Assembly (NCBI RefSeq): GCF_964204645.1
Contig: NC_134035.1
Coordinates: forward strand, 7,534,451-7,598,450
Length of the DNA stretch: 64,000 bases
DNA from: Tubulanus polymorphus
Taxonomy: Eukaryota > Animalia > Nemertea
Reading direction: 5' to 3'
A program made the position numbers and the translations under genes. This document shows, one piece after another, positions 25,085-63,869 of the stretch (the first letter of the stretch is position 1; every line of letters begins with the position of its first letter). The notes beneath the pieces are model-generated. The model was not told the origin of the DNA, did not search any database, and saw nothing but the letters and a program-made list of their open reading frames with translations.

Positions 25085-25114
25085 GAATATAAAGTTAATA
25101 TTGATGATATATAA

Positions 25115-26220
25115 ATGGGGGATAAAAAATTTCAAAATACTAAAGAACAATATTTTAAGAAATGTATGTTATAACCCCGAGAGTTCGGTTGCTTATTCTT
25201 CTGCAAAAAAATATATGGAGTCAGGTTAAACAAGATAAATTGAATAAGATAATCCAACAAAATCTAGTTAAATATAAAGATATTGATGAATTTATGTTAG
25301 AACAACCAACATATACAACACATAAAAAAAATATAAAACCCGTAAAACTATGGTAAGTTACGTAGATCAACAAAGGCAGGGAGATTTAATTGATATGATA
25401 AATCTTAAAAAAAGATAATAATGATTATTGGTGGATATTAAAAATAATTGATATTTTTAGTCGTTATGTGTGGAGCTTCCCGCTCTACAGAAAAGATGCT
25501 GCACAAACTTCTTTCAGGTGGTAAACTAAAGCCAGAAAAAATACAATTTGATGATGGAAAGGAATTTGATAACTCATTTGTTCATGTACTCTTAGATTAT
25601 CATAATATTAGAAATTTTTCAACAAAATCAGATAAGAAAGCAGCATTTGTTGAACGATTTAATAGAACATTAAGAACAAGAATGTCAAAATATTTCACAG
25701 CAAATAATACTTATGAATGGATTGATGTCATACCAAAATTAATAGAAGGCTTTAATAATCCTTACCATTCATCAATTGGAATGAAACCTATTGAACTAGA
25801 AAACCTGAAAATGCTGAAATTGTTTGGAATTACGGGGCATTTCTTGTAGATGATTTTGATGAGCCTCAATTGGTGAGCCTAAATATAAGGTTGGTCAAAA
25901 TGTTAGAATTTCTAAGTATAAAAAAATACTTGATAAAGGATACGATCGTAACATTACAAGAGAAATATATAACATAAAAAAATAATAACAACATTACCAT
26001 ATGTCTAAAATTAGAAGATTTGGAAGGCGAAGAAGTTGATGGGTATTTTCATGAAGAAGAATTAAGTTTAACTACTAACAATCTAGAACAAGAATATAAA
26101 ATTGGAAATTATTGAAAACAAAAAATGTTAAAAAGAAAAAAATATTCTTTAGTAAAATGGGTTGGGTGGCCGGATAAATTTAATGAATGGATACTATCAA
26201 GTAAAATTAAAAATATATAA
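25115..26220 (+). pseudogene. Polinton integrase pseudogene
   Basis: Similar to 61828-62955 (QFDDGKEF, VERFNRTL), with frameshifts. Confidence 0.9.
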
Positions 26221-26829
26221 ATGAATAAAGAATTATTCATATTTGAACCTCATAATATGTTATTTTCTGGTGTCACGAATTGTGGAAAAATATGTTTTAT
26301 AATAAATTTATTTGAAACTTTTTATAAAAACTATTTTGATAATATAGTATTATTCTGTCCAACGTATGAATTCAATCGAACTTATGATAGAACTATTACT
26401 AGAAATAATGAATTTATTGTATTAGATCCTAATACAGTGAAAGAAAATTTAGATGATTGAATTAAAATAGCAATTGATATTTATAATGGAACAAATACAT
26501 TATTTATTATAGATGATTGTGCAAATTTACATGATTCAAAAGTTAGAGAAAGTGAGTTATGTTACCTAGCTTTCTCTGCTAGACATTTTAGAATTTCAAC
26601 GTCGGTTCTAAATCAAAAATATAATTCAATTGTAAAAGATTTTAGAGAGAATATAAGATTTTTGGTTTTATTCTATAATAAAGATAGAAAATCAATGAAA
26701 AATGCACTTGAGGAAATTGATATTATTCCACATGATTTACATAATGAATATATGGATAAATTGAAAGATAATAAACAATCAAAATTATTATTTCGATTAC
26801 AGCACCCATTTAAATATGAATTTATTTAA
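26221..26829 (+). pseudogene. Polinton packaging ATPase pseudogene
   Basis: Similar to 62956-63564, with an in-frame TGA at 26458-26460. Confidence 0.9.
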
Positions 26830-27036
26830 ACTCAACTAGCTTGTTAATCTATTATATTTTTAGTTACATTCTAGTTATCTTTTAGTTGTTGGTATTTGAA
26901 ACAAAAATCAAATAAAATTCAACAAGAAATAAATCAAAATTATAATAATTCAACTAGCTTGTTAATGTAGTATATTTTTAGTTACATTCTAGTTAAATTC
27001 TAGTTACAACAACACAACTAATTTTTTGTTATAAAA

Positions 27037-27920
27037 ATGGGTGGAGAAAAGAAAATAGAATCTAAAAATTGTGATGTTCCAATTGAAAAAACTTGATGAT
27101 TTAGGTATAACAGAAACAAAATTAACTCCAGCTAATGGTGCTTTAAATGATGTTACAACAAAAATTAATTATGAATATTATCTTTATTGCAAACATCAAT
27201 TAGAAATATTAATTGCATCTGGAGAATGTAAAACTTTTATTGGTCTTACTTATAATGAATTAGATACAATGAAATCAGATCAAATTATTAAATTGTTTAA
27301 GATTTATGAAACTGCAGGAATAGCTAGAATTAATGACGCGATATCAGAAAATGTAATAACATGTTATTCTAAGTTATGTAATTATGTGCTACCAATTGAA
27401 GATGAAAATAAATAATACTCCGATTTAAAAAATGATTCTTTAGTTATGACTGGATTAAATAAATGGATTGAATATCTATCATTACAATTAGGTGGATTTA
27501 TGACATTATTATCAACTGGAGTTATAACATTTTCATACATTGATAATAAAAGTTTTTCTATAATGAATGAGCGAGGTGGAAGAAGTGAAAGAATTAACTG
27601 TGAAGAAAAAACCTGGATCACAGAAACAAATTGAATGGTCTCGGCAGTTAGGAATCAAACCAAAAGAATTTAAAAATGCCAAAAAAGAAAAAATGAAATT
27701 TTTGATAATAAAGATGGAAATGATGTTATTTCTATTCCCTCTAAATCATTCAATAAATATTTTTATTAATCAAACGGTCTTGTAATTGTTATCATTTTGA
27801 TAGAATGTAGTTGCTATAAAAAATCTAATAAAAATTATGATGTTAATAATTCTGAAACTTATTCTGTTGAAAATGAAAAAACTTCTGAAATTCCAAAATT
27901 CACCATAAAAATGGATTAAT
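27037..27920 (+). pseudogene. Two decayed Polinton accessory genes (about 27037-27565 and 27567-27920)
   Basis: The first matches the ORF starting at 63870. The second begins MSEVEEVKELTVKKKPGSQKQIEWSRQLG. Both are frameshifted. Confidence 0.6.
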
Positions 27921-28232
27921 AACTTTCAAATTAACCAAAAAATCATTTTATTTATCTAAAAATATTTCTTTTTTTAATTAATTAAATATCTCACTACTTT
28001 TGTCTATCTATTAGGAGCAATTTAATTTTCCAGATAAGTCATTTCGGATTCTTGATATTTAATTAATTTCATTATTTTATTATTTTTATTATTACATTTT
28101 CTTTTTGCTTATTTTATTTTTTTATTATTTAATTTTTTCATTATTTTATGTTTTTATAATTATATTCTTTTACAATTTTATGTTTTTACTATTTTATGTT
28201 TTTTTTTCATTTTATTTGTTTAATTATTTTAT

Positions 28233-28551
28233 TTATTCAACAATTTCTAACTCATGATGACCGTGTTCATCTTTTCCGTGATAGAATATTTTAAAACGTT
28301 CTAAATCTTTTAATTCCTCTTTACTTAATGAAACCGATTCATCACAAAAAATCCTTTAAATTCTCGTGTTGTACTAACATTACAGTAACTCAAATTTGCT
28401 GATATTTTTTCTCCATATTCAGTTTTTATCTTTTCTAGTTTTGATATTTTATGTTCGATTTCTTTTGTAACATCGACTAACTTTTTTACTTCAAATTGTT
28501 TTTTGCTGGTTTTATTTTATTATTTATTGATGTTACTTTTCTCTCTCCCAT
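28233..28551 (-). pseudogene. Small terminal Polinton gene (possible OB-fold/ssDNA-binding protein), frameshifted
   Basis: TAAATG start 85 nt inside the right terminus; translation includes KISKLEKIKTEYGEKISANL...FKIFYHGK. The fold assignment is a guess. Confidence 0.45.
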
Positions 28552-28731
28552 TTATCAGGGGAAAAAATTAAAAGTGGTGTTGAGTGATATTCTGACCTCT
28601 CGACCTCTGGTATGAAAACCCACTTTTCCAATAACTGATATTCATATAAATGATATTCATATAAATGATATTCATATGAAATTCATATATATGAAATTAA
28701 AAATATGAAAAAATAATTCTAATTTCTAATC

Positions 28732-28820
28732 AATCTGAAACCTATTGAAAACTAAATTAATTGGGATCGAAGCGAACAGCGGTGCGACTAATTAATTTAA
28801 TTTTCAATAGGTTTCAGATT
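28732..28820. repeat. Hairpin with a ~32-bp stem and GC-rich loop
   Basis: AATCTGAAACCTATTGAAAA pairs perfectly with TTTTCAATAGGTTTCAGATT (20 bp), plus an inner imperfect stem. Confidence 0.9.
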
Positions 28821-29925
28821 CATTTATTCATTCATTTATTTATTTATTTCTTGAATAATTTACATCAATAGATACCAGATTCACAAAATGACAATGAAGT
28901 GCCGAGCACTGACACCATATTGAAGGATGCGGACAGCACCGTGATGGAAACTGTGCCGAGCACTGGTACCAGCCGCGATCACACGAACAAATTACGCCTA
29001 GGTCAAATTTGGCATGGAACAACTGTTCACACGGATGCCATATGGACCCGAGCCTGTTTGGCCCGGGCTGAATTTGGCCCGACCAAAAACGTCGGACCAG
29101 GCCCGAGCCAGATTTTAGCACCAGACAAATGATTGCGTTTGAATTGCTACTGGCACCGGAAATGATCCACTTCGCTTTGTTTGAGCATTGTTTAGTATCG
29201 ACTGAATGGTTTGCGTGTGAACGCGCTCTCTAATTGGGCACGGGCCAAATTTGGGCCGAGCTTGATCCATGCCAATTTGGCCCGAGCCAAATCGTGTCCG
29301 TGTGATCGCGGCTATTGGAGGAAGTGGATGGCACCGCGATTGAAACTGTGCCGAGCACCGATACCACATTGGAGGATACGGAATCTCCGTTTTTCATGGC
29401 TTGTTTTTTTCACGGATGTGTCTGATCTCAGCCGCCGTCTCTGGACCTATAGTTCTCGCTAATTGAGATACGCGCTCCCCATCGGGAAACTTCACACACC
29501 TATAGGCGACCCCTTTTTACCCGTTCTTTTCGGGAGCTTATAAACTCGTTGAAACTGAATACCTTCTGCGTCACTAACTTCAAACATATCTTTAAACACG
29601 GAACGAAGGAGGAGCGCACAATTTTTGCGGTTTGGATTTTTACTTTCAGTTTCGCCGGCTCCAACATCAAATCGCATCATATATATCATAGGACTCTAAG
29701 TTGTTAATTCGTTCCATATTTCTCTTGGTCATTTCCGCAATATCAGACACTGTGTTATTCATTTCCAGCATGTCGGCCCGCATACAATCATGTTTTAGTC
29801 GGGTATTTATAACATAATTGTTTGTATAGCAGTCATATCTTTTTTTTCTAATATATCGGTTCGTTTAGTTAATGGAAAGATGGAGGCGGAAATACTCCCG
29901 ACTGCAACATTGAGATCGGGTGAGA
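28821..29925 (-). mobile_element. Dispersed repeat (retroelement-like, LINE ORF1-like fragment) with a nested palindromic MITE at about 28971-29314
   Basis: A second copy lies at about 38405-39570. Minus-strand fragment NCALLLRSVFKDMFEV..IQFQRVYKL. MITE TIR AGCCGCGATCACACG. Confidence 0.65.
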
Positions 29926-30364
29926 AACATTGAGAAAATGATCGCTCAATTTAGATATAACTTAGACCAATTGCTTGTTGTTATTTGAAATATCAAATCA
30001 ATGAATTAAATGAATAGTTTATGAGAAGCTTTTTACAAGCTAGTTTGTTGCAATTTATGATATCAAATCAACAATGAAATGAATAGTTCACGACGATTTG
30101 ACGCACTAATTAGTTATAATTAATCGAATCAAGAGTTTGGTTGAAAGCATTAGATTAAAATTCTTGTTCTTCTTTTTTCTTATTCTTATGTGATCGGTTT
30201 GCCGGTTGATGACGCACATCCAATTTGATTGACAAACGTTTAAGTTTGATAAAATAAATTCCGCATCAGAAATGGTGTCTTCAAGTTGGGATTAAATTTG
30301 GTTTAAAATAGTTGAATACTTTTTGCTGTGCCCTCTTGGAAAAATGCTCTCCACGCCGTTTACG

Positions 30365-31640
30365 TGATATAATGATTCTCATAATATAATATATCTATAA
30401 CATCATTTGAATCATAATCTTTTGATAAATATAAAGGTTCTAATGTGTAATGTTTTGTATAATCACCTTTTGTATTTGGTAATTTAATCAAATCGAATAT
30501 ATTTATTTTTGTATTATTATCTCTTTCTATTTCTGGTATATCCTTATATCTAACGGGATACCTATCTATCTTATAATTATTTTCAAATGGTATATAATTT
30601 GATAATCGATAAATATGATGAGTTGCAGGATGTAAACAACTTATGATTGACCATAGAAAACAATTATCATCTTCGTTTTGTACATTTATAACAGCATTAG
30701 TTTTGAATGGTAAATTAATATAACTTGTTGCTTCAATATCTGGATCTTTATAATATGATAAATTTTTTTCATCTATTGGCTTTTTTCATCTATTGGCTTA
30801 GTTGATTTATTAATTTTTGTATTGTACACGTGTAACGTCATAAACATTATTTCATCGAATATCAAACCAGATCCTTTGTAATAAGTCTCTTCTATTTTAT
30901 TTTTTACATCATTATAACATTTATCTAATCTATCATCTATATGCCGTTTAGATGTAATATGTTATGAATGAGAATTTATATTATATATTGGTTGATCTTC
31001 AGATTTTATAAATTTAACTTTAGCAGATATACTAATTTTTGGTATTCTATATCTGTAATTATTTTTATTATATCTTTCATATTTTCTCATATTTTTTTAT
31101 TTTCTTCTAATGTTTTACCTTTATAAAGTTTAAATTCAATAGCAGCTTGACCAATATTTGATTTAAAAGCTTCAGTTATTTCTATTTCTTTTTTATCATC
31201 TAATGAATCAAATATAATTTCTAACATCTTCCATGTATGGTCTTTCATTGTTTAATTTATTTTTTATATTTCTTACTATCTTTTCTTTCTTATCATTATC
31301 TTTATCAAAATAATCTTCACCTAAAATATCATTGTTAATATTTCTAATATGACATTTAGATTTTAAATGTTGTAAATAATATATTTTGTTACTGAATGAT
31401 TGATTACATGTATCACATTTATATAGTTCTTTTTCATTCTTCAGTTCTTCTAATTTAGTTTCTAGTATATCATCTTTATATTCTAATTTCGATTTATTTT
31501 CTAAGTGAGATTTAGTTTTATTATGTCTTGCTTTTTGAGATTTATCTATATTCTTTTTACATGTGGGGCAGAAGTACTTCTTGTTTGCTTTAATATATAA
31601 TTTTTTATTAAAATTGATTTCATTATGATATATGTTATAT
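30365..31640 (-). pseudogene. Decayed 5' part of a paralogous Polinton pPolB (zinc fingers to the CFLWSII region)
   Basis: Translates to YFCPTCKK..RHNKTKSH, PYMEDVRNYI and AVINVQNEDDNCFLWSIISCLHPATHHIYRL, homologous to 48756-50010. Confidence 0.88.
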
Positions 31641-31665
31641 ATAAAATATTGTATATAAATATTAG

Positions 31666-32067
31666 AGTAAGTGTTTAATAGTTGTTTCAGGCTAGAGGTT
31701 GAAAGGTTGAGTGAATAAAAAAACAAATATAAAAAGTAATTTTAATTTCTAACCTTAATATATATTCATAGTCGTGTGTATTTTAAGGTAATTATTAAAG
31801 GAATAAATTAATATTACTAGAAAAGATTTAATTATATAAATCTATTCTATTGTGTTTAATATAAATTGGTCGCTCCGTTCCCAATTTATTCAATTTCAAT
31901 AAGCTTTGAAATTAAAATTACTAATATTTTAGAATAAATGTTTATACAATATATTTAAAAATACACACGACTATGAATATATATTATAGTTAGAAATTAA
32001 ATTACTTTTTATATTTGTTTTTTTATTCACTCGACCTCTGGCCTGAAACAACTATTATACACTTACT
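31666..32067. repeat. 402-bp fold-back with ~115-bp inverted arms that have Polinton-like AGT...ACT ends and a central hairpin
   Basis: Arms at 31666-31784 and 31958-32067; hairpin ATAAATTGG-TCGCTCCGTTC-CCAATTTAT at 31861-31889. Confidence 0.9.
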
Positions 32068-33091
32068 CCCGAGCCCCGAAACGATGACAGCTACAAATCC
32101 AGACGAGTGTGTGTCCGAACCCTCTTCGAATACACATATATACGAATAGATTTATCATTGCATTAACGGAGTGTAATAAGTACCCTAAATGATAAGGTCT
32201 ATATTTCCGTGCCAGGTTCGTCGGTAAAACCGCCGGTAGAAACGTGTTCACTAAATCTAATACGTACTCGGCCATGAATATTACGTTCAAAGCCAGTATT
32301 GTCATTGTGATTTGTCGACTTTGTTTGCTATGCATAGAATTCGATTCTTTTTCGCTTTTCTGCAGTGTCCGACGCGTTAAAGCCGCCGCCCGCACTAGGA
32401 AAACCATATGAACGTTACACGCCGAGACAATCAGACCGGGGATCGTTTTCAGAACTATTTGACCGAAAATGAAATCGTAATAAAACGCATATCGTCGATT
32501 CAGAAGCAACAGTTTCCGTTGGCCTGTGTACGTACACGGTTGATCGTGATGAACTGTATACGTCTCTTTATCCCAGATTGTCGGTATTTCAAAGGCGAAT
32601 GTTAGAATCCAAGCAATTGCTGAAATACGGAATGCAATACCGATTCTACATATTCTTCTGGCTGAAAGTGGGAACCTAATGGCTATGTAGCGATCAATAC
32701 TTAACGCGAAAAGAATCCAGGGACTCGTATTTGTGGTCATCTGGAATATTACGTCGACGTACAAGTGGACATAGTAGGCGTAAGCTCGATAGATGTAATC
32801 GTAGCGAATGAATTCAAACGGGTTGTACGATGATAAAATTCGCAAGTCACGTCCAAATACCCCGGTTAAACAGTTCGTTGCATCGGCTATAGCGAGCACC
32901 TGAAGATACACTATACTGCTGCCTCTAAGTGACATGGTGCGAAGAACTATGAACGCAAGGGTGTTGGAGATGATACCAATGGAGTAAAGTATCGCACGAG
33001 CGATCGTCATCAAGACAGCATATGAGTACGTACCGGTACCGAACTTTCCATCACAGATCGAACTGCAGCATACGTCGGTGTAGTTTGCCAT
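32063..33091 (-). CDS. Intronless class A GPCR, FMRFamide/peptide-receptor-like
   Basis: Seven hydrophobic segments; SNTLAF (TM1), LAIAD (TM2), SIDRYIAIRFPL, INLFVY (TM7). Likely start MANYT, which carries an N-glycosylation site. Confidence 0.88.
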   Translation of the reverse strand: MANYTDVCCSSICDGKFGTGTYSYAVLMTIARAILYSIGIISNTLAFIVLRTMSLRGSSIVYLQVLAIADATNCLTGVFGRDLRILSSYNPFEFIRYDYIYRAYAYYVHLYVDVIFQMTTNTSPWILFALSIDRYIAIRFPLSARRICRIGIAFRISAIAWILTFAFEIPTIWDKETYTVHHDQPCTYTGQRKLLLLNRRYAFYYDFIFGQIVLKTIPGLIVSACNVHMVFLVRAAALTRRTLQKSEKESNSMHSKQSRQITMTILALNVIFMAEYVLDLVNTFLPAVLPTNLARKYRPYHLGYLLHSVNAMINLFVYMCIRRGFGHTLVWICSCHRFGARE

Positions 33092-38300: not shown

Positions 38301-41300
38301 GGCCTCAGCAGTATTCCGTTATGACCTTCCACTCATCTGGATTAGATGTATTCCAGTGTAACTTTACTACCTTTTTAGCATTAATAAACAGTTAAAACGT
38401 GCAGAAATACATTTATTTATTCATTGATTTATTTTCATGAATAATTTATATCAATAAATACCAGATTCACAAAATGACAATGAATAAGTGTCGAGCACTG
38501 ACACCATATTGGAGGATGCGGAAAGCACCGCGATGGTTCACTTGGGTCCCCATTATTCTAAATCCCGTTAGCTTGTCTTCCTCCGCTTGATACTTCCATT
38601 CGCTCACTCATTTACTCACTCATTCCTTGATTAAACTTTGATTTCCTTGCCTTTGGTTTTAGTCTGACTGCCACTTAGTTTGTCCCCGCATTATAATCAC
38701 TCTGGTTACGGGCTTCGTTTTTGAATTACATTTAACTCGCATTACTTTACCCCCAGTTTGTCGTTTGCCTTCATTGTTGTCTCCCTTTGTTCCGGTTTTT
38801 GTTGTTTAATTACTTTAATCTTCATCCGTTGTCTGATTCTTATATAAATATTCTGTTATTTCATTATGTTCTCAGTACGCCGGATGATGGCTAATAGCAT
38901 TTTGCCGAAACGTTGCTCAAAATATATTCCTTTTAATATAGAACTTTTCATTTTTGACTGAATTTATTGTGGGATTTCTCTCGTTATCATCATGCACGGA
39001 TATTGTGTATCTTCTCGTCGCGCCGTGATGGAAACTGTGCCGAGCACTGATACCTTATTGGGGGATGCGGAATGTCCGTTTTTATGGCTTGTTTTTTGCG
39101 GATGTTTCTGATCTCAGCCACTGTCGAGATACGCGCTCTCCATCGGCAAGCGGCACGCACAGGCGACCGGTTCTTCTCGAGAGCCTATAAACTCGTTGAA
39201 ACTGAAACTTTCTGCATCACTAACTTCAAGCATATGTTTAAACACGGAACGTAGGATGAGCGCACAATTTCTGCGGTTTGGATTATAACTTTAAGTTTCT
39301 TCGACCCCGTAGAATATCAAATCGCTTCATAGATCATAGGTTTTACAAGTTGTTGATTCGTTCTATATTTCGCATGGTCATTTCCGCAATATCACACACG
39401 GTGTTATTCATTTCCAACATGTCGGCCCGCATACAATCATGTTTTAGTCGGGTATTTATAACAGCGGTCATATAGCAATGTAGCAGTCATATCTTTTTCT
39501 AATACACCGATGCGTTTAATAGAAAGATGGACGCGGAAATACTCCCGACTGCAGCATTGAGATCGGGTAAAATGTTTACTTTTTCCAGAACACTCGATTG
39601 CATTGTTTCAAGTTTAGAGCAACCGGGAAAGCCTCATAATTGACTTTCTAAACAATCATCCGGTGTCCATGTTAAGATATTCTTAAGCCCCACACACTCC
39701 TATGGGGGAGGGCTTCACTGACGAAGCCTTTGTTTACATGTCTTGGCGCTTGGATCGATGTCATCATAAACGGTTAGATATATAGATAGATTGTTTCAAT
39801 ATTTCAAATTCGATGTATGAGAAAAAATTAGTCTCGTGTAAAACTTGGACGGATTTATTTCGGGCTTTTTAAATGCACCGTCGGAATAAGGCACGGAGAA
39901 TGCATTTCTCCGATTCTCGTCAATTTATATGTTAATGATATGGAGGAGTATATCATTGCAACTGGTCATAATGGAATAAATAGTCTGCGAGTTGTTCAAA
40001 CTTTAAGCAGAAAAATCCCTTATTCAAACTGGTTTACTTCAAAAGACGGTATTATTTGTTTCAAATCCTCGGCCTGGTTCCACGTTTTAGCGAGATTTTG
40101 ATAAACATGTGCCTAGCTTCCATAATGATCAAAGTTTGAATACGGTGTTCATTTTACTTACATTTATATCGTGCGCCGATAACCAAAAAGAACGTTATTA
40201 CATAAATACCTTACTCTGGTGTCACAAATTTTCAGTGTGTTTGCTTCTGGGTTGTGTCAGCCAAGAAATGCGACCTATCGCGTTGAAAGCAGTTGCCAAA
40301 ATGCGAAGAGTTGCTGAACATAAATAGCGCTGAAAACAGGTGACGGGAACAAGATTCATTGCGTTTGAAGAGAACTGTCTCAAGGAGTAATGAAATTAGC
40401 TGTTAACAGTATTGAAGTACCGTGTACTTGCAAGTATTTCTGAAGTTTCTCATATAGCTAATGTTACCATATTGACTTAATCATTAACAATTGCAATCTA
40501 AGATCGAAATAATAGATTCAGTCGCTCTAGAGTTCTAGCCGAACAGCTGTTCTTCGCTTATATTTTCGAACACGGATATACTTTATACCTAAAACGCATT
40601 AGAATTTCGATCTTATTCGGCATAAAGATGAAACTAAAACTTAAAAATAACCAACGCATATAGAAGACTTATTTTCTACATTTTGAGAGTAACAAAAATA
40701 TGTTTTACAACCGTCAAATCTTTGCAAAATCTAGGTTTTTATTTTTTCGTTTCTGTAAATGCACTCTTTGCATATTAAGTGATATAATATTTCATGTAGA
40801 GCTTTCATTTTTATTATGAAAATATGAAAAGGAATGGTTTATCATTTGACCAGACTAGGTCATGATGTCATCCAAGATGGCCAACTTAGGATTGTGAAAT
40901 TATACATTTTGGATATCACTTCAAATAGTATTCCATATAGACCTTTCATATGGATATGTGTGACTAAAACTTTACTTAATTGGAGGCGGAGAACAACGCA
41001 TAACACTCGGACATGCATTGAACTTATACCTCCCTCCCGCCCACTCTCCCTGGCCTCTCTCCTTCTCTCCCTCTCATCGGATCATAGAGAGCCGATGATA
41101 CTGCTGGAATAATGGACTTCGCAGCTGGCACTTTAACGCACTAGTGGTGACAAAATATGTACACTTTTTATATATGTATATCTATGTACACATATACATG
41201 TATTTTTCATTTGAACCATATTTTCCCCTTCTGGCTACTGCATGTTGGTTTGAAAGAAGCGAGCCTTTTTCAGGAAGAAGCTGCTAGTTTCGCAGCGAGG

Positions 41301-47300: not shown

Positions 47301-48436
47301 CAATAACATACCAGTGCCAATAACCGGTGCGAGGCATGTATTAACTGTTATTTCTATTGATTATACCAAAAAACAAACTGGTAAATATGATGCGTTATGT
47401 ACGATATTCTGAATTCAAAATCGTAAAGAATATTCAATGGATAAATCTCTACAGTAACTACACAAAAACGTCTCAGTCGTTTTCTTGTATTTCGCCGAAT
47501 AAAATTTGATACAATGATCATGAATAATGTTTCTGTTTAATCGAGAATGATTTTTTGAAAGGAAATAACGAAAGACCACATTTAGGCCACATATAATGTC
47601 CCCGGACGATTTGTGGTTGTCCATTGTATATTGTAAATGTTATGTTTATAATAAAATTCCAATAGTTAAAAAAATAAAAAAATAAAAATAACGAATGTCA
47701 TCGGGACGCTTCCGAAATTATCCGCAGCTAAGGATCATATACATATATACAACTGTATTACTTACTGTAGCATTCTGGCTTTTGACCCTCAAATTTTCCG
47801 TCGTTCTGGCATTGACGATTCAGCTTTCCTGTATATAATTGATAGCCATCCAGACAGCTGAGATCCAACATATCACCGGTTTTATAACTCGACTTTAATT
47901 CCAGTAACTTCGTACCTTGACCCAATACTGGTGTGCCACAACTAATACCTACAGTTGGTATGTAAATAAGGAAGGCAATTCCGTATGAGCGCGGGATTGA
48001 GATGAATCAAACTATGCCCCTAACGTAGTAATATATCGCAAATTACATCATAAATTTTGGAAACTATTTCAAGGTAATCCTGTTACAAATGTAATTCGTT
48101 AATTCTTCGTTTCAATTGCACGCAATTCCATGAATATGAGACTCAATTGTTTGAAATTGTTTTTCTTTTGCTTACTGCAAACTGGAATAGAGCACTCTTG
48201 CCATCTCTGAGCCGGATCAGCTGTATAACACCAAACAGTCGTGTGGTTGCCCATAGGATTGCGACAGTAATTCACTGCCGCCGCGACGGACCCGCTAGGA
48301 AAGTAGCTATCGACGTTGTAGACGTGCGCATGCGGTGTTTGCGAAGCCCACGGCTGACAGACGAGTCCGGTTTTAGTGACCGCTACCGTACCCGTGTACG
48401 TGTCGCCCTTGACCGTCGGCAAACAATGGTTTTGAT
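35331..48436 (-). CDS. Multi-exon mosaic protein with kringle and sushi/CCP repeats plus C-terminal Cys-rich (resistin/PCSK9-like) modules; 5' exons lie beyond the Polinton
   Basis: Kringle exons (NYCRNP, PWCY) at about 48176-48436, 46617-46892 and 44164-44405. Sushi exons at about 47765-47950, 47152-47345, 46011-46183, 44715-44896, 43840-44041, 43491-43737 and 41525-41740. Cys-rich exons at about 36852-37058, 35757-35894 and 35331-35472 (stop). Boundaries are approximate. Confidence 0.8.
35990..36710. repeat. ~32-bp minisatellite (CTCAGACAATCTGCTGTCTGTACCCAGCACTC), intronic
   Basis: More than 20 tandem units; it accounts for the spurious repetitive ORFs. Confidence 0.95.
37295..37520. repeat. 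~75-bp tandem repeat, 3 units
   Basis: TGACATCATGAGACTC...CCCTCAGCAGGGA recurs. Confidence 0.75.
37880..38400 (+). mobile_element. Highly degraded LINE RT remnant
   Basis: Remnants of DLTKxFD- and LQKRAV-like motifs. Confidence 0.45.
38405..39570 (-). mobile_element. Second copy of the 28821-29925 repeat, interrupted by a Penelope-like fragment (about 38536-39020)
   Basis: Long sequence identity with 28821-29925; the insert carries GGATGATGGC...GCCGAAACGTTG. Confidence 0.65.
42030..43279 (+). mobile_element. Probable non-autonomous Helentron/HINE-like repeat
   Basis: Internal tandem units, a (GGAC)n microsatellite at 43210-43230, and a 3' hairpin TGGGACT-AA-AGTCCCA followed by an A-run. 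Confidence 0.4.
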
Positions 48437-48755
48437 CTATTGATAGAAAATGAAACGATGAAAACCCCGTTAACAATTGAACCTGGTATGAGTATACGGT
48501 ATTACGCTCATTCGACAACTGCTCAATCCAAGGTCAGACAAACAAAAAAGAAGTATTAGGTCTAATTCAAAAAATGTCGAGTAACGAGAGAAATCCAACA
48601 ATAAATTCAGCCAAAAATGAAAAAAGTCGACAAAAATCCACTATATAAAAGAAAAACTATCTGATAGTTTAGTAATTAGAAAAGTGGGGTTTCAGATCAG
48701 AGGACGAGAGGACGAGACACCACTCATCACCACAAGTAATTTTTTTTCCTTATAA

Positions 48756-51700
48756 ATGGGGGAGAATGAACACCAACCAGAAAACAATAATGTTAATAAA
48801 AATCAATATTATTGCACATATTGTAAAAAATACGTTGATACATCTAATAAAACACGACATGAAAAAACTGCAAATCATATAAAAAATGTAATAGATTTTG
48901 AAACTCCAGAAAATTCTAATGAAAGAAAAGAACGATTAGAAAATATGAATGTGGATGAAATAAAATGTGAAGTTTGTAATGAATTTATAGTAAAAAGGAA
49001 TTATAATAGACATCTCGAATCACAAAAACATTATAAAAATTTAAATAAAAATGTTTTAGGATTAGAATATTTTGATAATAAACCTCAACAAGTAAAAGAA
49101 TCAACTTCAAAAACTAAATCCATTTCAAATAAACCCTACATGGAAAATGTTAGAAATTATATTGATTCACTAGAAATAAAAGATACAATTGAAATCTTAG
49201 AAACATTACATAGTAAAATTGGTCCTGCAGCTATTATATTTAGATTTTTTAAAGGTACAACAATAGAAGATTATAGTAAATTTAATGAAATAATAGAAAA
49301 AATACTAGATTTGATAACAGATGTTGAATATCCAAAAATTAGTATCTCTGGGAAAGTAAGTTTTATAAAGTCAGAAGAAAAAATGGATTATAATATTCAA
49401 ACACTCTCTGAAGAAATAATTTCAAAAACACAAATAAAAGATAAGTTAGAAAAAATAGTAAATGAATTTGAACGTCATATTGAAGAAAGATATTTTGAGG
49501 GTTCTGGCTTAACATTGAATGAAATTATATATTTAGATTTAAATGTTTATAATACAAAAAGGAATAAAACATCAAAAAGTAATAAAATGTTTAAAAATGA
49601 TTCAAACTTTACAACAGAAAAGGATATTAAAGCATCATCTTATATTAAATTACCATTTATAACAAAAGCAGTAATAAATATTCAAAATGAAGATAATAAA
49701 TGTTTTCTATGGTCAATTATTAGTTGCTTACATCCAACACAGGAAAAATGTTTGTAGAATAACAGATTATCGGAAATATGAAACATTATATAAAATTGAT
49801 CAATATCCAGTAACTATAAAAATGATTCCTAAAATAGAAAAAGTTAATAATTTAAAAATAAATGTATTCGAATTAATGCAATTACCAAAAACAAAAGGTG
49901 AAAATATTAAAGATTATACATTGGAAGCTTTATATTTAACAGAATATTATGATGATGAAAATGCTATAGATTTGTTATATTATAAAAAAGATGAAAATGA
50001 ACATTATATGTGGTTAAAACAAATTGATTTATTCTTTAGAACAACAGAAAGTGATCATCATCGTAAAATTTATCTATGTAGAAAATGTTTATCTAAATTT
50101 ATGACTGAGAATACATTATTAAAACATAAAGAATTATGTGATAATAAAGATTTTTGTAAATTAATAATGCCAACAGAAAAAGATTATAAATTGAAATTTA
50201 CTAATCATAAATTTAAAAATATTATTCCATTTGTAATTTATGGGGATTTTGAATCGTTGAATAAAGAATTAACTGATCAAGATAGAAAAGAAATATATAA
50301 CAAAAAGCAATTATTAAAATCAATGGATAAAGGAAATGAATTAAATGAAGACACAATACAAGACCCACCAATTATAAATACAATTAAAAAAGTTCATCAA
50401 AGAGCTGCTGCTTATGGAATTTACATCAAATCAAATTATCCCGAATTATATGAAAGTCAATATATTTCTTTTAGAGGTGAAAATGTAGTTAATGATTTTT
50501 GTGATAAAATGATTGAATTAGAAAGTGATTTTACAAAATTATTAAACAAAAATAAAAGAATAGTTATGACAAAAGAAGATGAAATTGATTTTAATTATGC
50601 AACTCATTGTTGTTATTGTGAAAAACGTTTTTATTCATTTGATAAAAGAGTTAGAGATCATGATCATTTGAATTCAAAATATCGTGGAGCTGCTCATGAA
50701 GATTGTAATTTACAAGCTAAAAAAGTAAATTTCGTACCAATATTATTTCATAATTTATCAGGATATGATACCCATCTATTTATAAAACAATTATCGGGAA
50801 AATTGGGTGCAATTAATCAAGAAATAGAAGAATATAATGCTATGAATGAAGCAAATGTAAGAAAATATGATTTTAAACTATTAGCTAAAACATCTGAAAA
50901 TTATATTTCATTTCAATTTGGTTGCATTAGATTTTTAGATTCTTATAGATTTCTAGCAAGTTCATTAGATAATTTATCAAAATCATTAGTTGATAATGAT
51001 TTTATTATAACTCGATATTATTATCCAAATGAACAAGATTTTAAATTATTGAGATATAAAGGCGCAATTCCTTATTCATTTTATAAAACACATGATGATT
51101 TTAATGTAACAGAATTATTAAAAGATCAATTTTATGATCAATTAAAAGAGGAGTATGTGAAAGACGAAGTTTTTAATAGAACATTTAATATTTGGAACCA
51201 TTTTAATATGAAAAATCATGGTGAATTAGTTGATTTATATTTAAAATCAGATGTTATGATATTGGCAGATATATTTGAAAAGTTTAGAGAAGTTAATCTA
51301 AACCATTTTTATGTTGACCCTTGTTATTGTTATTCAAGTCCTGGTTTAACCTGGCAATGTGGTTTAAAATATACAAATGTAGAATTAGATTTATCAAAAG
51401 AACCAGATATGGTTTTATTATTTGAAAAATCAATTAGAGGTGGAATTAGTGGTGTTATGGGAGATAGGTATTTTAAAGCAAATGATGAATATAAATTATT
51501 ATATATTGACGCCAATAATTTATATGGTTGGGCAATGATGCAACCTCAACCATACAAAAATTTTATATTAACAGAAGTTGAAAATGATGATAAAACTGAT
51601 TGGGAAAGCGCAATTACGAGTTTAAAAGATGAAGCACCAATTGGTTATTTCTTTGTAGTTGATTTGGAATATCCCGAAAATATTAAATTTAAAACAAGAA

Positions 51701-53823
51701 ACTTGCCATATTGCCCGGAACATTTAGCCGTAGATGATAGTTATTTAAGTGAATACCAGAAGAAAGTAAAACCGAAAGATCATGTTTTTACGGAAAAATT
51801 AATACTTACTCAAAATAATAAATACAATTATATTGTTCATTATAGAATGTTAAAATTTTATCTAAAACAAGGAATGAAATTAAAGAAAGTACATAGATAT
51901 ATTGAATTTAATCAATCGAAGTGGTTAGAAAAATATATAGATTTCAATACTCAACAGAGAACCATATCAAAAACAGATTTTGAAAAAGATTTCTTCAAAT
52001 TAATGAATAATAGTTTTTATGGTAAAACTTGTGAGAATATTCGTAATAGAAACGATATTGAATTAGTAAATAATTCTGAAAGATTAAGACATTTACAATC
52101 AATTCCTAGACATTTAGGAAATAAAAGATTTGAAGATTATTTAACAGCAGTTAAATTAAAAAGAACATCAATGAAATTTAATAAACCTATATTTATTGGT
52201 TCGACTGTTTTAGAAGTATCAAAATTATTAATGTATGATTTTTATTATAATGTTTTACAACCACTTTTTGGAGAAAAACATATAGAAATATTATATTTTG
52301 ATTCTGTTACAGCAGACACCCCAATATTATTAAAATACAATAATAAAATATTGGTAAGAAGAATTTCAGAAATAATTCCTAATCAAAATAAATCTTATAT
52401 TTCATATGGTGAAAAAGAATTAATACAAATAAATGGATTAATAGATGTTTGGACAAGAAATGGATGGAAAAAATTAAATAATATTATTAGACATAAAACA
52501 AATAAGAAAATCTATAGAGTTAGAACTAAATTAGGATTTGTAGATGTTACAGAAGATCATAGTTTAATTAAACAAAATGGTGATGAAATAAAACCAACTG
52601 ATATAAAAATTGGAGATGAATTATTACATAAAAGATTTTACCCAAGAATGAATCATATGTCATTTGATGAAATAATTGATAATATTTATAATATAGAACC
52701 CAAAACATTAGAAGAAAAAGAATATTTTATCAAAGGATTTTTCATAGGTGATGGTTCAGCAGGTGTGTATAATTATGTTAGTGGAACTAAATATTGTTGG
52801 TATTTATGCAATCAAGACTTAAAATTATTAGATAGAATTAAGAAATTTTGCGAAGAAGTTTATTCACATAAAACATTTAGAATCATGGATGTTATGAAAT
52901 CATCAGCAGTTTATAGAATACTTGTAAATAATCCTAAAGATTTTGCTATAGAATATAATGATGAATTCTATATTCATGCAATAGTGAAAAGTAATACTTC
53001 AACAAAAGAAAAGATAGTTCCAGATTATGTATTAAATGCAAAAAATAATTTAAGAAAATGGTTCTTCATTGGGTTCTACGCAGCCGATGGTACTAAAAAA
53101 TTTACAAAGGATAAAAAGATAACCTTTGCACAGAAAGGAAAAGTTGCTATATCAGGGTTAAATATATTATGTAATTCATTAGGCTTCAATATGAATATTG
53201 GATTGATTAAATCTAAACCAAATTGTTTTAATCTAAGCCACACAGAAAAAGATTTAACTGAAGAAGTTAAAGATTTATTTGAAATATATAACCCAACAGA
53301 TTATGTTTATGATTTATCAACAGATGATGGAACATTCAATTCTGGGTTCCCATTAATCCAAAAAAATACTGATGCATACATACTAAAAATCAAGACAAAT
53401 GATATAACAAAAGACTTAAAAACATTAAAACATCATTTTGATTTTAGCAATTATCCTAAAGATCATGAACTATTTAGCAATGATAATAAAAAGATTCCTG
53501 GTAAATTTAAAGATGAATTAGGAGGTGATGAAATGATTGAATTTGTTGGGATAAGAAGTAAAATGTATTCATATAAAACTAAAGATCATGAATCTAAAAA
53601 GTTAAAAGGAATAACAAAACATGTGGTTGATAAACATATAGAATTTCAAGATTATATAAAGTGTTTATATAAATCAATTGTAATGAAACACAAAATGAAT
53701 TGTTTAAGATCAGAAAATCATGAAATGTATATAAATGAAATTGAAAAAACTAGTTTAAATCCATTTGATGATAAAAGGCATATTTTAGATGATGGTATAA
53801 AAACATTACCTTATGGTCATTAA
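48756..53823 (+). CDS. polB: Protein-primed family B DNA polymerase (N-terminal zinc fingers, exonuclease with endonuclease VII-like insert, intein); one 1-nt frameshift at about 49742-49748
   Basis: Motifs YGDFES, RDHDH..YRGAAH..CN, FHNLSGYD, YIDANNLYGWAM, KLMNNSFYGK, YFD/TD, PGKFKDE, RSKMY and DDKR. Confidence 0.93.
52303..53367 (+). mobile_element. Intein (355 aa) with LAGLIDADG homing endonuclease, inside pPolB motif C
   Basis: YFD|SVTADTP (block A), VDVTEDHSL (block B), FIKGFFIGDG and FFIGFYAADG (LAGLIDADG), YVYDLST (block F), IQKN|T (block G, +1 Thr). Confidence 0.95.
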
Positions 53824-60549: not shown

Positions 60550-61797
60550 ATGAGTGGGAGTTATATAAGTCCTTTGAAGAATCATAGAATATCTAATGCT
60601 ATTAAAGCAGAAAGATCACATCATATAATTACTCATAACCCTTCTAATATTAATCCCGATGAAACTTTATACGTTAGAATCCCTCGATTAACACAAAATA
60701 CTTTTTATGTTCCAAACAGTATTTATTTATCAACCGATATAAAAGTAACTGGCCATGATAACAATTATGTTGTTGATAATGTTGGAAGATATTTGATTAA
60801 AAAATTAACTATAAAGATTGGTCCGGAAACAGTTTTCTCATTAGATGATTATAATTTATTTATGCATTATAAAGATTTATGGTTAACTAAAGAAAATAGA
60901 AATAATATGATATTTCAAGGCATCCAATCGGAAAACCATAATAAATTAAGATCTGAAGCCAATAATGCAGTAGTAACTCGTGCCACAGATAATTTGATTA
61001 AAAAGATTTATGGAAGCAAATATAAAATTCCATTAGACTTTGAATTGATAAATAATAATGCACCTTTATATAAATACGCAATTCAAGAAGATATTATATT
61101 TGAGATAACATTTGCTCCTGTAAATGAAATTGTATTATCTAGCGTTGTTAAAGATATGGGTTATAAATTATCGAATATATGTTTAGAATATAACACAGTA
61201 ACTAATGAAAATATTGCTAGCACAATTCAAACTCAATACAATCAAGGATTTTCATTATTATATGATTATATTGATAAATTTAAAACTGTAACTATTAATG
61301 CAAATGATGAAATAATTAATGAGAATATTAACTTTCCTAGAAGATCTATTAAAGGTATATTAATATTTTTTACTATTGCAACATATTCTAATGGTGCAAT
61401 AAATGTTGATAATTATTATAATCCTGAAATAACAAAAGTAGAAATAACTATCGAAGGTATAGCGAATAAAATATTTTGTCAAGGAATGAGAATGATAGAT
61501 CAATGGCCAGAAATTAGAAAACATTTTATGAATGAAAAAGTAAAATCATTTGAAAATTGTAATATTAATCAAATTGATTATTATACTGGTAATAAATATG
61601 CATTATGGTTAGATTTTAGAACAACTGAAGATAACTTATTACATGGTTCTGGAAAAAAACTACAAAATACAAAAGATGGAATACAATTATTCATGAAAAA
61701 GAATAAAGGAATCAAAAATTTTAAAATGCACATTTATATTATATCTGATGCGCAATTAAATATTGTAAATTCACAATTAGATAGTATTCAATATTAG
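60550..61797 (+). CDS. Major capsid protein (double jelly-roll, inferred)
   Basis: 415 aa, beta-rich; NPSNINPDETLYVRIP, ALWLDFRT..LHGSG; located next to the integrase and ATPase. Confidence 0.8.
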   Translation: MSGSYISPLKNHRISNAIKAERSHHIITHNPSNINPDETLYVRIPRLTQNTFYVPNSIYLSTDIKVTGHDNNYVVDNVGRYLIKKLTIKIGPETVFSLDDYNLFMHYKDLWLTKENRNNMIFQGIQSENHNKLRSEANNAVVTRATDNLIKKIYGSKYKIPLDFELINNNAPLYKYAIQEDIIFEITFAPVNEIVLSSVVKDMGYKLSNICLEYNTVTNENIASTIQTQYNQGFSLLYDYIDKFKTVTINANDEIINENINFPRRSIKGILIFFTIATYSNGAINVDNYYNPEITKVEITIEGIANKIFCQGMRMIDQWPEIRKHFMNEKVKSFENCNINQIDYYTGNKYALWLDFRTTEDNLLHGSGKKLQNTKDGIQLFMKKNKGIKNFKMHIYIISDAQLNIVNSQLDSIQY

Positions 61798-61827: not shown

Positions 61828-62955
61828 ATGGGTGGTAAAAAATCTCCTAATACTAAAGAACAATATTTAAGAAATTTATATTACAACCCTGAGAGTTCGG
61901 TTGCTTATTCTTCTACTAAAAATATATGGCGTAAAGTAAAACAAGATAAATTAGATAAGATAATCCCACAAAATTTAGTTAAATATAAAGATATAAATGA
62001 ATTTATGTTAGAACAACCAACGTATACAACACATAAAAAAATTGTTAGAAAATATAAAACTCGTAAAACTATGGTAAGTTATGTAGATCAACAGTGGCAA
62101 GGAGATTTAATTGATATGAAAAATGTTAAGAAAGATAATGATGATTATTGGTGGTTATTGAATATAATTGATATTTTTAGTCGTTATGTATGGAGCTTCC
62201 CACTTTATAGAAAAGATGCTGTACAAACATCAAATGTTTTAAGAAAATTTCTTTCGGATGATAAACTAAAACCAGAAAAAATACAATTTGATGATGGAAA
62301 AGAATTTGATAATTCACTTGTTCATGAACTCTTAGATAATCATAATATTAAATATTTTTCAACAAAATCAGATAAAAAAGCAGCAGTTGTTGAACGATTT
62401 AATAGAACATTAAGAACAAGAATGTGGAAATATTTTACAGCAAATAATACTTTTAAATGGATTGATATTTTACCAAAATTGATAGAAGGATATAATAATT
62501 CTTATCATTCTTCTATTGGAATGAAACCTATTGATGCTAGAAAACCTGAAAATGCTGAAATTGTTTGGAATAATTTATATGGAGCATTTCTTATAGATGA
62601 TTTTGGCGAACCTAAATTTAAAGTTGGTCAAAATGTTAGAATTTCTAAGTATAAAAAGATATTTGATAAAGGATACGATCGAAATTTTACTAGAGAAATA
62701 TATAAAATAAAAAAGGTAATAACAACAAAACCATATGTCTATAAATTAGAAGATTTAGATGGTGAAGAAGTTGATGGCTACTTTTACGAAGAAGAATTAA
62801 GTTTAACTACTGAAAATCTAGAACAAGAATATAAAATTGAAAAAGTAATAAAAACAAAAACTATTAAAAGAAAAAAATATTCTTTAGTAAAATGGGTTGG
62901 ATGGCCAGATAAATTTAATGAATGGATATTATCAAGTAAAATTAAAAATATATAA
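61828..62955 (+). CDS. Retroviral-like (rve) DDE integrase with C-terminal chromodomain
   Basis: WQGD, IDIFSRY, QFDDGKEF, VVERFNRTL; chromodomain YKIEKVI..LVKWVGWPDKFNEWI. Confidence 0.95.
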   Translation: MGGKKSPNTKEQYLRNLYYNPESSVAYSSTKNIWRKVKQDKLDKIIPQNLVKYKDINEFMLEQPTYTTHKKIVRKYKTRKTMVSYVDQQWQGDLIDMKNVKKDNDDYWWLLNIIDIFSRYVWSFPLYRKDAVQTSNVLRKFLSDDKLKPEKIQFDDGKEFDNSLVHELLDNHNIKYFSTKSDKKAAVVERFNRTLRTRMWKYFTANNTFKWIDILPKLIEGYNNSYHSSIGMKPIDARKPENAEIVWNNLYGAFLIDDFGEPKFKVGQNVRISKYKKIFDKGYDRNFTREIYKIKKVITTKPYVYKLEDLDGEEVDGYFYEEELSLTTENLEQEYKIEKVIKTKTIKRKKYSLVKWVGWPDKFNEWILSSKIKNI

Positions 62956-63564
62956 ATGAATAAGGAATTATTCATATTTGAGCCTCATAATATGTTAATT
63001 TCTGGTGTAACAAATTGTGGAAAAACTTATTTTATATTACATTTATTAGAAACTGTTTACGAAAACTATTTTGATAATATAGTATTATTTTGTCCAACAT
63101 ATGAATTTAATCAAACTTATGATAGAAACATTACTAGAAATAATAAATTTATTATATTAGATCCTAAAACAGTAAAAGAAAATTTAGATAATTGTATAAA
63201 AATAGCAATTGATATTTATAAAGGATCAAATACATTATTTATCATAGATGATTGTGCTAATCTACATGATTCAAAAGTTAGAGAAAGTGAGTTATGTTAT
63301 TTAGCTTTCTCTGGAAGACATTTTGGGATAACAACTTGGGTTTTAAATCAAAAATATAATTCAATTGTTAAAGATTTTAGAGAAAACATTAGATTTCTAG
63401 TTTTATTCTACAATAAAGATAGAAAATCAATGAAAAATGCACTTGAGGAAAATGATATTATTCCACATGATTTACATAATGAATATATGGATGAGTTGAA
63501 AAATATTAAAAGATCAAAATTACTATTTAGATTACAACACCCATTTAAATATGAATTTATTTAA
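62956..63564 (+). CDS. A32-like DNA packaging ATPase
   Basis: Walker A GVTNCGKT, Walker B FIIDD, GRH motif, LNQ. Confidence 0.92.
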   Translation: MNKELFIFEPHNMLISGVTNCGKTYFILHLLETVYENYFDNIVLFCPTYEFNQTYDRNITRNNKFIILDPKTVKENLDNCIKIAIDIYKGSNTLFIIDDCANLHDSKVRESELCYLAFSGRHFGITTWVLNQKYNSIVKDFRENIRFLVLFYNKDRKSMKNALEENDIIPHDLHNEYMDELKNIKRSKLLFRLQHPFKYEFI

Positions 63565-63860
63565 ATTCAACTAGTTTGTTAATCTAATTGAATTCTAGTT
63601 ACATTCTAGTTGAATTCTAGTTGTTAGTAGTTGAAACAAAAATCAATTAGATTTAACAATATTTCAACTAGCTTGTTAATCTATTTTAATTCTAGTTACA
63701 TTCTAGTTGAATTCTAATTGTTAGTAGTTGAAACAAAAATCAACTAGAATGTAACTAGAAATAAACAAAAACAACAATATTTCAACTAGCTTGTTAATCT
63801 AGTTGAATTCTAGTTACATTCTAGTTGAATTCTAGTTGCAACAACACAACTAATTTGTTT
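63565..63860. repeat. Intergenic CTAG-rich direct and inverted repeat array
   Basis: Units of TTCTAGTTACATTCTAGTTGAATTCTAG; a homologous array lies at about 26830-27025. Confidence 0.85.
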
Positions 63861-63869
63861 GTTATATAA

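Follow-up and report, generated by a model that had tools for sequence, protein, structure and literature searches.

The protein-primed DNA polymerase B (pPolB) of a Polinton in the nuclear DNA of the nemertean Tubulanus polymorphus is interrupted by an intact intein at the Pol-c site, and intein-filled and empty alleles of this polymerase coexist in the species. The window, as the whole stretch of DNA analysed is called here, spans 64,000 nucleotides (contig NC_134035.1, positions 7,534,451 to 7,598,450); its features are collected in Table 1. The element is estimated to be present in about 40–55 copies, about one third of them filled, a rough figure that derives from 12% of one sequencing run with a host flank depth of 3–16×. 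The evidence laid out below makes it probable that the intein excises itself by protein splicing and is maintained by homing into sister copies that lack it.

Table 1. Features of the Polinton, its intein and the flanking host gene, in window coordinates.
Feature	Position	Strand	Evidence
Host sushi (CCP) exon, same gene as the kringle exon (stop-to-stop frame)	47758..48006	-	Sushi E 5e-9
Host kringle exon with AG acceptor and GT donor	48176..48436	-	Kringle E 7e-21; splice sites read
Likely left end of the element, ~90-bp terminal inverted repeat starting AGTA	48671..48760	.	Loose read ends in run X6; depth jump
N-terminal part of pPolB (zinc fingers), in a frame different from that of 49687-53823	48756..49757	+	Reading frames, profile matches
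N-extein of pPolB: Exo I-III, endonuclease VII-like (HNH) insert, Pol A, Pol B, first Asp of motif C	49687..52302	+	PF03175 E 2.5e-19; PF02945 E 0.021; motif positions
Intein, 355 aa: Hint splicing domain (~aa 1-115 and 320-355) with nested two-motif LAGLIDADG endonuclease	52303..53367	+	Profiles, model, exact 1065-nt read skip
N-terminal splicing motifs: Ser1 (52303), NX motif Arg63-His64 (52489-52494), block B Thr83/His86 (52549, 52558)	52303..52560	+	161-intein alignment
LAGLIDADG endonuclease core: motif 1 Asp150 (52750), Lys237 (53011), motif 2 Asp262 (53086)	52729..53094	+	Alignment; I-DmoI structural matches
C-terminal splicing motifs: block F Asp337 (53311), block F His absent, Lys354-Asn355, extein Thr+1 (53368)	53302..53370	+	Alignment
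C-extein of pPolB: TD of motif C, KxY and KGI motifs, stop	53368..53823	+	Motif positions
Putative major capsid protein (weak)	60550..61797	+	Pfam Capsid_N E 0.013, below cut-off
rve integrase with chromodomain	61828..62955	+	PF00665 above cut-off; PF00385 E 8e-4
A32-type packaging ATPase	62956..63564	+	PF04665 E 1e-12

In translation, the stop-free insert starts with SVTADTP, ends with LIQKN and is flanked by YFD and TDA within a 1378-residue open reading frame. It scores above the profile cut-offs for the intein N-terminal region (TIGR01445, 32.7 bits against 24.5) and for LAGLIDADG_3 (PF14528, 30.4 against 22.5), and matches Intein_splicing (PF14890) at an E value of 3e-7, below the cut-off of that profile. 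The insert is confirmed as a class-1 intein of the Ser/Asn/Thr type with a two-motif LAGLIDADG endonuclease. Ser1, Asn355 and the extein Thr+1 occupy the junctions, block B contributes Thr83 and His86, and position 4 of block F is Asp337. The NX motif, a His after Arg or Lys, is typical of Ser1 inteins according to PMC10189870; Arg63–His64 corresponds to it, as judged by its position ahead of block B and by an alignment to 2cw7 and 9hth. The endonuclease has two LAGLIDADG helices with the acidic Asp150 and Asp262, and the basic EN2 residue Lys237. An AlphaFold model of the intein (71-row alignment, mean pLDDT 94.9) predicts a Hint fold. The best PDB matches of this model are PI-PkoII, TliVMA, PhoVMA, PI-PfuI, PI-SceI and I-DmoI, with 2cw7 at the top (E 9e-17), and its best viral matches are the PolB inteins of phycodnaviruses, pandoraviruses, marseilleviruses and megavirus. 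Matches to tissue factor were rejected as chance.

The insert separates the first Asp of motif C from the Thr that follows it (YFD/TDA) and its relatives lie at xxD/TD, which is the Pol-c site, given as YGD/TDS of motif C in PMC549080 and occupied by the Mimivirus R322 intein. The boundaries are fixed independently, since 45 raw reads skip exactly 1065 nt at this site and since the filled polymerase P0007 has an empty counterpart, P0143, whose flanks are the same. In these alleles, as in the empty motif C of P0369–P0381, the host protein is contiguous without the insert. The original prediction, made from the DNA letters, had described an in-frame 355-residue insert splitting motif C of a Polinton pPolB in animal DNA at the YGD/TD site of archaeal and nucleocytovirus PolB inteins, with Ser1, TxxH, two LAGLIDADG aspartates, a block F Asp, a terminal Lys-Asn lacking the penultimate His, and Thr+1. 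The reading frame, the profiles, the spliced exons in the flank and an alignment of 161 inteins bear out this description. It had overlooked that the block F His is also absent, that the pPolB frame is broken near 49.74–49.76 kb, and that the element is multicopy with filled and empty alleles.

The set of 161 inteins was derived from 368 proteins, in which 202 inteins were delimited; 181 had clean D/TD ends and a length of 300–450 residues, and dereplication at 92% left the final set. The splicing residues are invariant or nearly so: Ser1, His86, Asp337 and Asn355 are found in all 161 inteins, His64 in 160 and Thr83 in 159. Among the endonuclease residues, Lys237 is present in 161, Asp or Glu at position 150 in 155, and Asp262 in 153; the catalytic residues are intact in the pPolB inteins aligned. 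Two histidines are missing from the window intein, namely the penultimate one, replaced by Lys354, and that of block F:13, where Gly343/Thr344 are found. The penultimate residue is His in 90 of the 161 inteins and Lys in 51, and all but one of the 49 scorable Lys-type inteins also lack the block F His, counts that ignore relatedness. Many of the Lys-type members sit in replicative polymerases of large viruses. The notion that the missing penultimate His signals decay was therefore rejected, the Lys variant being common in the family and co-varying with absence of the block F His. Neither His is needed in every intein (PMC4031507, section 6), and because the catalytic residues are also kept, the window intein is predicted to splice.

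The same evidence bears on the idea that the insert is dead or capable of cleavage only, so that it inactivates the polymerase and filled copies are non-autonomous and copied by empty helpers. The loss of both histidines and the frameshift upstream in the window copy would agree with this. However, the Lys type makes up nearly a third of the family and almost always lacks both histidines, neither His is obligatory according to PMC4031507, and open-frame filled pPolBs of 1476–1693 residues exist, which renders a dead insert improbable to a high degree.

The element combines pPolB with an rve integrase and a packaging ATPase, the set of genes by which a Polinton/Maverick is recognised. The candidate for the double jelly-roll capsid protein found no match in PHROGs or PDB sequence searches, and its single-sequence fold was uninformative (pLDDT 29.5). 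No maturation protease was found within the 64-kb window, which ends inside the element; the element runs past the window end and its right terminus lies outside. The GC content drops from ∼37% to ∼23% at 49 kb. The pPolB gene of the window copy is broken by a frameshift near 49.74–49.76 kb. This break seems particular to the window copy or its assembly, because the majority of sister-copy reads do not agree with the window sequence at that point; with its polymerase frameshifted, the window copy is likely inactive on its own. The endonuclease VII-like (HNH) insert of the N-extein, at 50578–50715, scores below the cut-off here and above it in P0011 and P0143. According to 10.1101/2023.08.22.554363, in the text available, the HNH insert is limited to nematode and oomycete pPolB2.

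A second, decayed Polinton lies at 22625–31730. Its capsid module, on the plus strand, is 81–88% like the 58.6–64.0 kb region, and its pPolB N-terminal part is found on the minus strand (30.4–31.3 kb, 70%), so the gene arrangement differs. This copy stops short of motif C. A unit of ∼100 bp directly follows the ATPase gene in both Polinton copies, three times at 63566–63866 and twice at 26831–27034, and a long imperfect palindrome (31665–32068) is located at the end of the second copy.

The Polinton end lies ∼235 bp before the acceptor of the kringle exon, likely in the upstream intron. Other frames in the window match an ASC channel, LicD and a rhodopsin-type GPCR; these frames and the spliced kringle and sushi exons identify the host as an animal. 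Copies were judged from reads, for which runs X1, X2, X4, X5, X6 and X8, out of eleven listed, were aligned. X6 is raw Illumina DNA from a separate study with the same species label, of which ∼12% was read; X1 may be the source sample itself; X8, RNA by guess, had no reads that aligned to the window. In X6, 597 reads carry unlike flanks before position 48671 (agreement 0.36), and 330 reads share one other continuation behind 48760 (0.91), which together point to a likely terminal repeat and to many insertion sites. Flanked by a spliced animal gene and inserted at many sites, the element resides in the animal nuclear genome. A 42-bp repeat just outside the Polinton end (48582–48623; also 38945–38986) has hundreds of loose read ends on both sides and is a separate short high-copy repeat.

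The junction of the window copy at 48671 is not bridged by any listed record, read or contig, so the predicted integration into an animal chromosome is established by reads for the element family and by assembly only for this locus. The unbridged junction, and the presence of small pieces in a marine metagenome (X5), would be expected of an assembly chimera or a contaminant, with the intein or the element coming from a symbiont or a free virus. Against such a source, host flank, extein and intein are all represented among the reads of a separate study that bears the same species name, and in these reads the element end is joined to hundreds of different sequences; contigs from X1 and X4 cross the extein–intein border; and the second, decayed Polinton lies in the same window. 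An artefact of this kind has hardly any probability left.

Filled and empty alleles both occur in the reads. At 88% likeness, the extein depth in X6 is 40 (mean) to 55 (median) times that of the host flank, and the intein depth is 23–33 times; at 80% likeness, the intein depth is 0.32 of that of the adjacent extein. The 45 X6 reads with the exact skip have 30 different starts, and 47 plus 11 further reads have a net skip of 1065 nt with a few substituted letters just after the site. Three reads are off by one at the skip and 119 depart from the window at 52302. Contigs of X1 and X4 contain empty-site joins as well. That reads skip the 1065 nt, some of them with altered letters there, shows that intein-free alleles are present in the DNA and differ among themselves at the target. 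The intein-free copies for which the original prediction had proposed a search are therefore at hand, at about two thirds of all copies.

Sequence differences between the window copy and sister reads are enriched for synonymous changes in the intein. Among the 40 best-supported of 406 difference rows, 32 fall in the intein; 16 of these 32 are synonymous, against an expected fraction of 0.19–0.29 depending on transition bias (p 8e-5 to 0.01), and none creates a stop. In the endonuclease part (residues 120–320), 11 of 17 such differences are synonymous. Some reads have compensating indels near 52905–52910 and X4 has small indels, which suggests that a minority of copies is decaying.

Searches with the intein yielded 272 longer proteins (best 120 listed), 35 of similar length and 2090 representatives (best 150 listed). 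The closest relatives among the matches listed are inteins of other pPolBs: P0003 is 64% identical, P0004 49%, P0005–P0007 46–47%, and P0011–P0012 42%. Fragments of pPolB inteins reach 75% identity, and viral or metagenomic matches at most 41–42%. Among the loci retained from scans of IMG/VR and JGI (37 of 37; best 80 of 514), all relatives were of the RNA-primed type, at no more than 42%, and no pPolB locus was recognised. In an unrooted tree of 61 inteins, comprising the 55 most similar of the 161 and six chosen outliers, the 11 pPolB inteins form one clade (support 100/100). A unique one-off insertion was rejected on the basis of this clade and of relatives 41–64% identical over the full length. 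The sister group consists of 14 inteins of RNA-primed PolBs (99/89), ten of them large-virus-like and four phage-like; P0018 in this group is 99.8% identical to a giant-virus MAG contig, and the phage-like P0013 is closest to T4-like gp43 (∼30%). Deeper rows, as far as classified, have RNA-primed PolB or topoisomerase-like hosts, except for the long row P0331, whose placement is unsure. An origin of the pPolB inteins from large viruses would be the simplest reading of this unrooted tree, in which T4-like phage polymerases within the sister clade leave the donor class unsettled.

Several members of the wider family sit in unexpected hosts. The T4-like gp43 polymerases P0013, P0014, P0017 and P0176 have inteins nested among those of large eukaryotic-virus PolBs, which suggests exchange between phages and eukaryotic viruses. 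P0083, named Chloropicon primus DNA polymerase delta by NCBI, has the same intein allele in motif C and, if the name is right, would be a cellular eukaryotic replicative polymerase with a Pol-c intein. The type II topoisomerase-like proteins P0008, P0095, P0108, P0113–P0115, P0119 and P0120 carry the same intein family at D/TDG; the family hence uses a D-T-D target in unrelated proteins.

Inteins recur in pPolBs and occupy a minority of them, so the concern that they might be common in Polinton polymerases holds only in part. Of 5837 matches to the polymerase core of the N-extein, the best 120 include 4 filled, 101 empty and 15 unscored pPolBs, the last being three truncated proteins and 12 with variant motifs that look empty. 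The three closest polymerases among the matches listed, 71–72% identical, are all empty. The filled state is scattered on an N-extein tree of 51 rows (11 filled, deliberately enriched, and 40 empty, 22 of which are random): it requires 8 changes against a mean of 10.1 in shuffled data, 31 of 500 shuffles being as low, and at least 6 changes are forced by the starred branches, on a tree whose bootstrap has not converged and which carries a long-branch warning.

Among eight related filled pPolBs, the identities of inteins and exteins correlate (Mantel rho 0.58, p 0.009). The GC3 of the intein (0.14) is close to that of the extein (0.11–0.12), and both observations argue for long residence of the intein in pPolBs. 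Because intein and polymerase have mostly diverged together, the intein was likely gained long ago rather than in a recent transfer from one of this animal's viruses. P0006 breaks the pattern: its intein is 42–50% identical to the others (46% to the window intein), its exteins only 11–28%, and its N-extein has no significant BLASTP match to that of the window (best E 0.94). The same intein on an unrelated extein indicates a lateral jump between pPolB classes.

These results bear directly on the proposal, put forward in the original prediction, that the intein homed recently from a large DNA virus co-infecting this animal. Giant-virus MAG polymerases do occur in the sister clade, Mimivirus uses the same site (PMC549080), and the noted likeness to giant-virus inteins stands insofar as these are among the nearest outside relatives; the nearest of all are other pPolB inteins (41–64%). 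Moreover, the best viral and metagenomic matches reach 41–42%, compared with 64% for the intein of another pPolB, the 11 pPolB inteins group in a single clade, intein and extein co-diverge, and the base composition of the intein matches that of the extein. Recent direct homing is accordingly very improbable.

Evidence on homing itself comes from families in which filled and empty alleles can be compared. The P0004 cluster has 136 members, of which 15 are listed, on contigs of 57 kb to 1 Mb; these 15 comprise 7 filled, 6 empty and 2 fragments, and the filled inteins are 95–99% alike. All 10 fixed differences between filled and empty alleles, among 900 ungapped columns, are found from −7 to +44 residues of the intein. 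Such clustering would be the footprint expected of co-conversion during homing, and tight linkage with recombination elsewhere would fit it too. Comparison of the filled flank with a neighbouring family as the source gave no direction (4.1 vs 3.3, 3.2 vs 4.7, 3.3 vs 3.3). In two families other than that of the window, filled alleles scarcely differ from empty ones outside the surroundings of the insertion site.

Cys replaces the near-invariant Thr of motif C in 46 of the 101 empty pPolB alleles, 41 of which read YMDCDS (P0381–P0486; also P0129 and P0131). The closest polymerases, P0369–P0381, all keep the Thr. As judged from these alleles, the Cys-type motif C may represent escape from the endonuclease.

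The intein could instead be a splicing passenger whose endonuclease no longer homes in this species, filled and empty copies being separate subfamilies spread by transposition with occasional recombination. Co-divergence and the excess of empty copies, about two thirds of the total, also fit such passive inheritance, and the empty alleles vary right at the site, so many of them may be uncuttable. Opposed to this are the intact endonuclease catalytic residues of the aligned pPolB inteins, the prevalence of synonymous differences in residues 120–320, and the two families whose filled and empty alleles hardly differ away from the site. Loss of homing is thus unlikely, though it keeps more weight than the other alternatives discussed above.

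We therefore favour a self-splicing intein that homes, which would work as follows. In class-1 oxyester splicing, an N–O shift at Ser1, aided by His64, Thr83, His86 and Asp337, would be followed by transfer to Thr+1 and by cyclisation of Asn355 without the two usual histidines. Splicing would restore the D-T-D active site, whereby filled elements would keep a working polymerase. The endonuclease would cut motif C where it lacks the intein, and repair templated by a filled copy would transfer the intein together with some flanking codons; this could happen while excised or virion-borne elements replicate, or from one chromosomal copy to another. The intein lineage probably entered pPolBs once, long ago, from the RNA-primed PolB of a large DNA virus, in a Polinton ancestor. 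Afterwards it would have co-diverged with one pPolB group, made at least one jump into an unrelated pPolB class, and cycled within pPolB families. A bolder version, which we put forward tentatively and hold to be somewhat doubtful as a whole, is an active Polinton intein gene drive in animal genomes that converts empty copies across dozens of elements, chromosomal or reactivated, drives escape at motif C (YFDTDA, YTDCDS, YMDCDS), crosses Polinton classes, splices naturally in animal cells and offers a possible doorway into host genes.

Both the chemistry and the site have precedents; what appears to be new is the class of host protein and the genomic setting. The Pol-c inteins of giant-virus and archaeal PolBs (Mimivirus R322, PMC549080; HaV01, pandoravirus and phycodnavirus; PI-PkoII) share with the window intein the motif-C site, Ser1/Asn/Thr+1, the Hint domain with a two-motif LAGLIDADG endonuclease, and a length of ∼350 residues. 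Unlike them, the window intein has a Polinton protein-primed polymerase as its host, not an RNA-primed PolB, is multicopy in animal nuclear DNA and belongs to a clade of its own with a GFPL C-terminal signature. For Klebsormidium, Tetrabaena and Hondaea, nuclear scaffolds that encode intein-bearing viral-like DNA polymerases are described (PMC10710043, section 8). In those cases, too, an endogenous viral polymerase has brought an intein into a eukaryotic nucleus. The organisms concerned are algae and a labyrinthulomycete, whereas the present intein occurs in an animal, is carried by a Polinton with an integrase, and has filled alleles side by side with empty ones.

HNH and VSR nuclease inserts are known from Polinton pPolB2 (10.1101/2023.08.22.554363, in whose available text the word 'intein' is absent), and the HNH-type inserts of polinton pPolBs have been speculated to be the outcome of intein invasions (PMC11161782). 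Those inserts resemble the window pPolB, with its additional weak endonuclease VII-like insert, in that a nuclease domain is embedded in a Polinton polymerase. The available text mentions no splicing domain in the pPolB2 inserts, whereas the window insert is a complete Hint/LAGLIDADG intein that splits a catalytic motif. Inteins of invertebrate iridoviruses (Chilo iridescent virus, PMC549080 and PMC4031507; Iridoviridae, Table 1 of PMC5784728) likewise occur in DNA viruses replicating in animal cells, but these are free large viruses and not integrated multicopy elements in animal DNA. The Hedgehog/Hint autoprocessing domains of animals have the Hint fold in common with the window intein. To our knowledge, they possess no endonuclease, no pair of C-terminal Asn and +1 nucleophile for extein ligation, and no empty alleles.

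A survey across eukaryotes places inteins in fungi, some other microbial eukaryotes, plastids and large DNA viruses, the viral ones being from large-virus families and unclassified viruses (PMC5784728), and a 2021 review bases an argument for antimicrobial drugs on the absence of inteins from metazoan genomes (PMC8529194). No report of a Hint-type intein in a Polinton, a protein-primed polymerase or an animal genome was found in the full-text literature searched, a scope that includes the available parts of PMC8502044 ('intein' absent), PMC12220804, PMC13768754, PMC3671162, PMC5718144 and 10.1101/299784; subscription journals, Repbase and InBase fall outside it, and the SI appendix and datasets S1–S2 of PMC10710043 may list further endogenous viral inteins.

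An intact, multicopy and polymorphic intein in animal DNA qualifies the rule that inteins are absent from metazoans, with the reservation that its carrier is an integrated viral element rather than a gene of the host itself. Protein-primed polymerases are added to the known hosts of the Pol-c allele. The intein family would also document that genes have passed between Polintons and large DNA viruses, and from one Polinton class to a distant other, so that the partners would have to encounter each other within a single cell. With both allele states in the same genome, homing, co-conversion and target escape become measurable from sequence. Finally, the family is a source of Ser1/Thr+1 inteins that presumably work in animal cells, and of a natural C-terminal variant that lacks the usual histidines.
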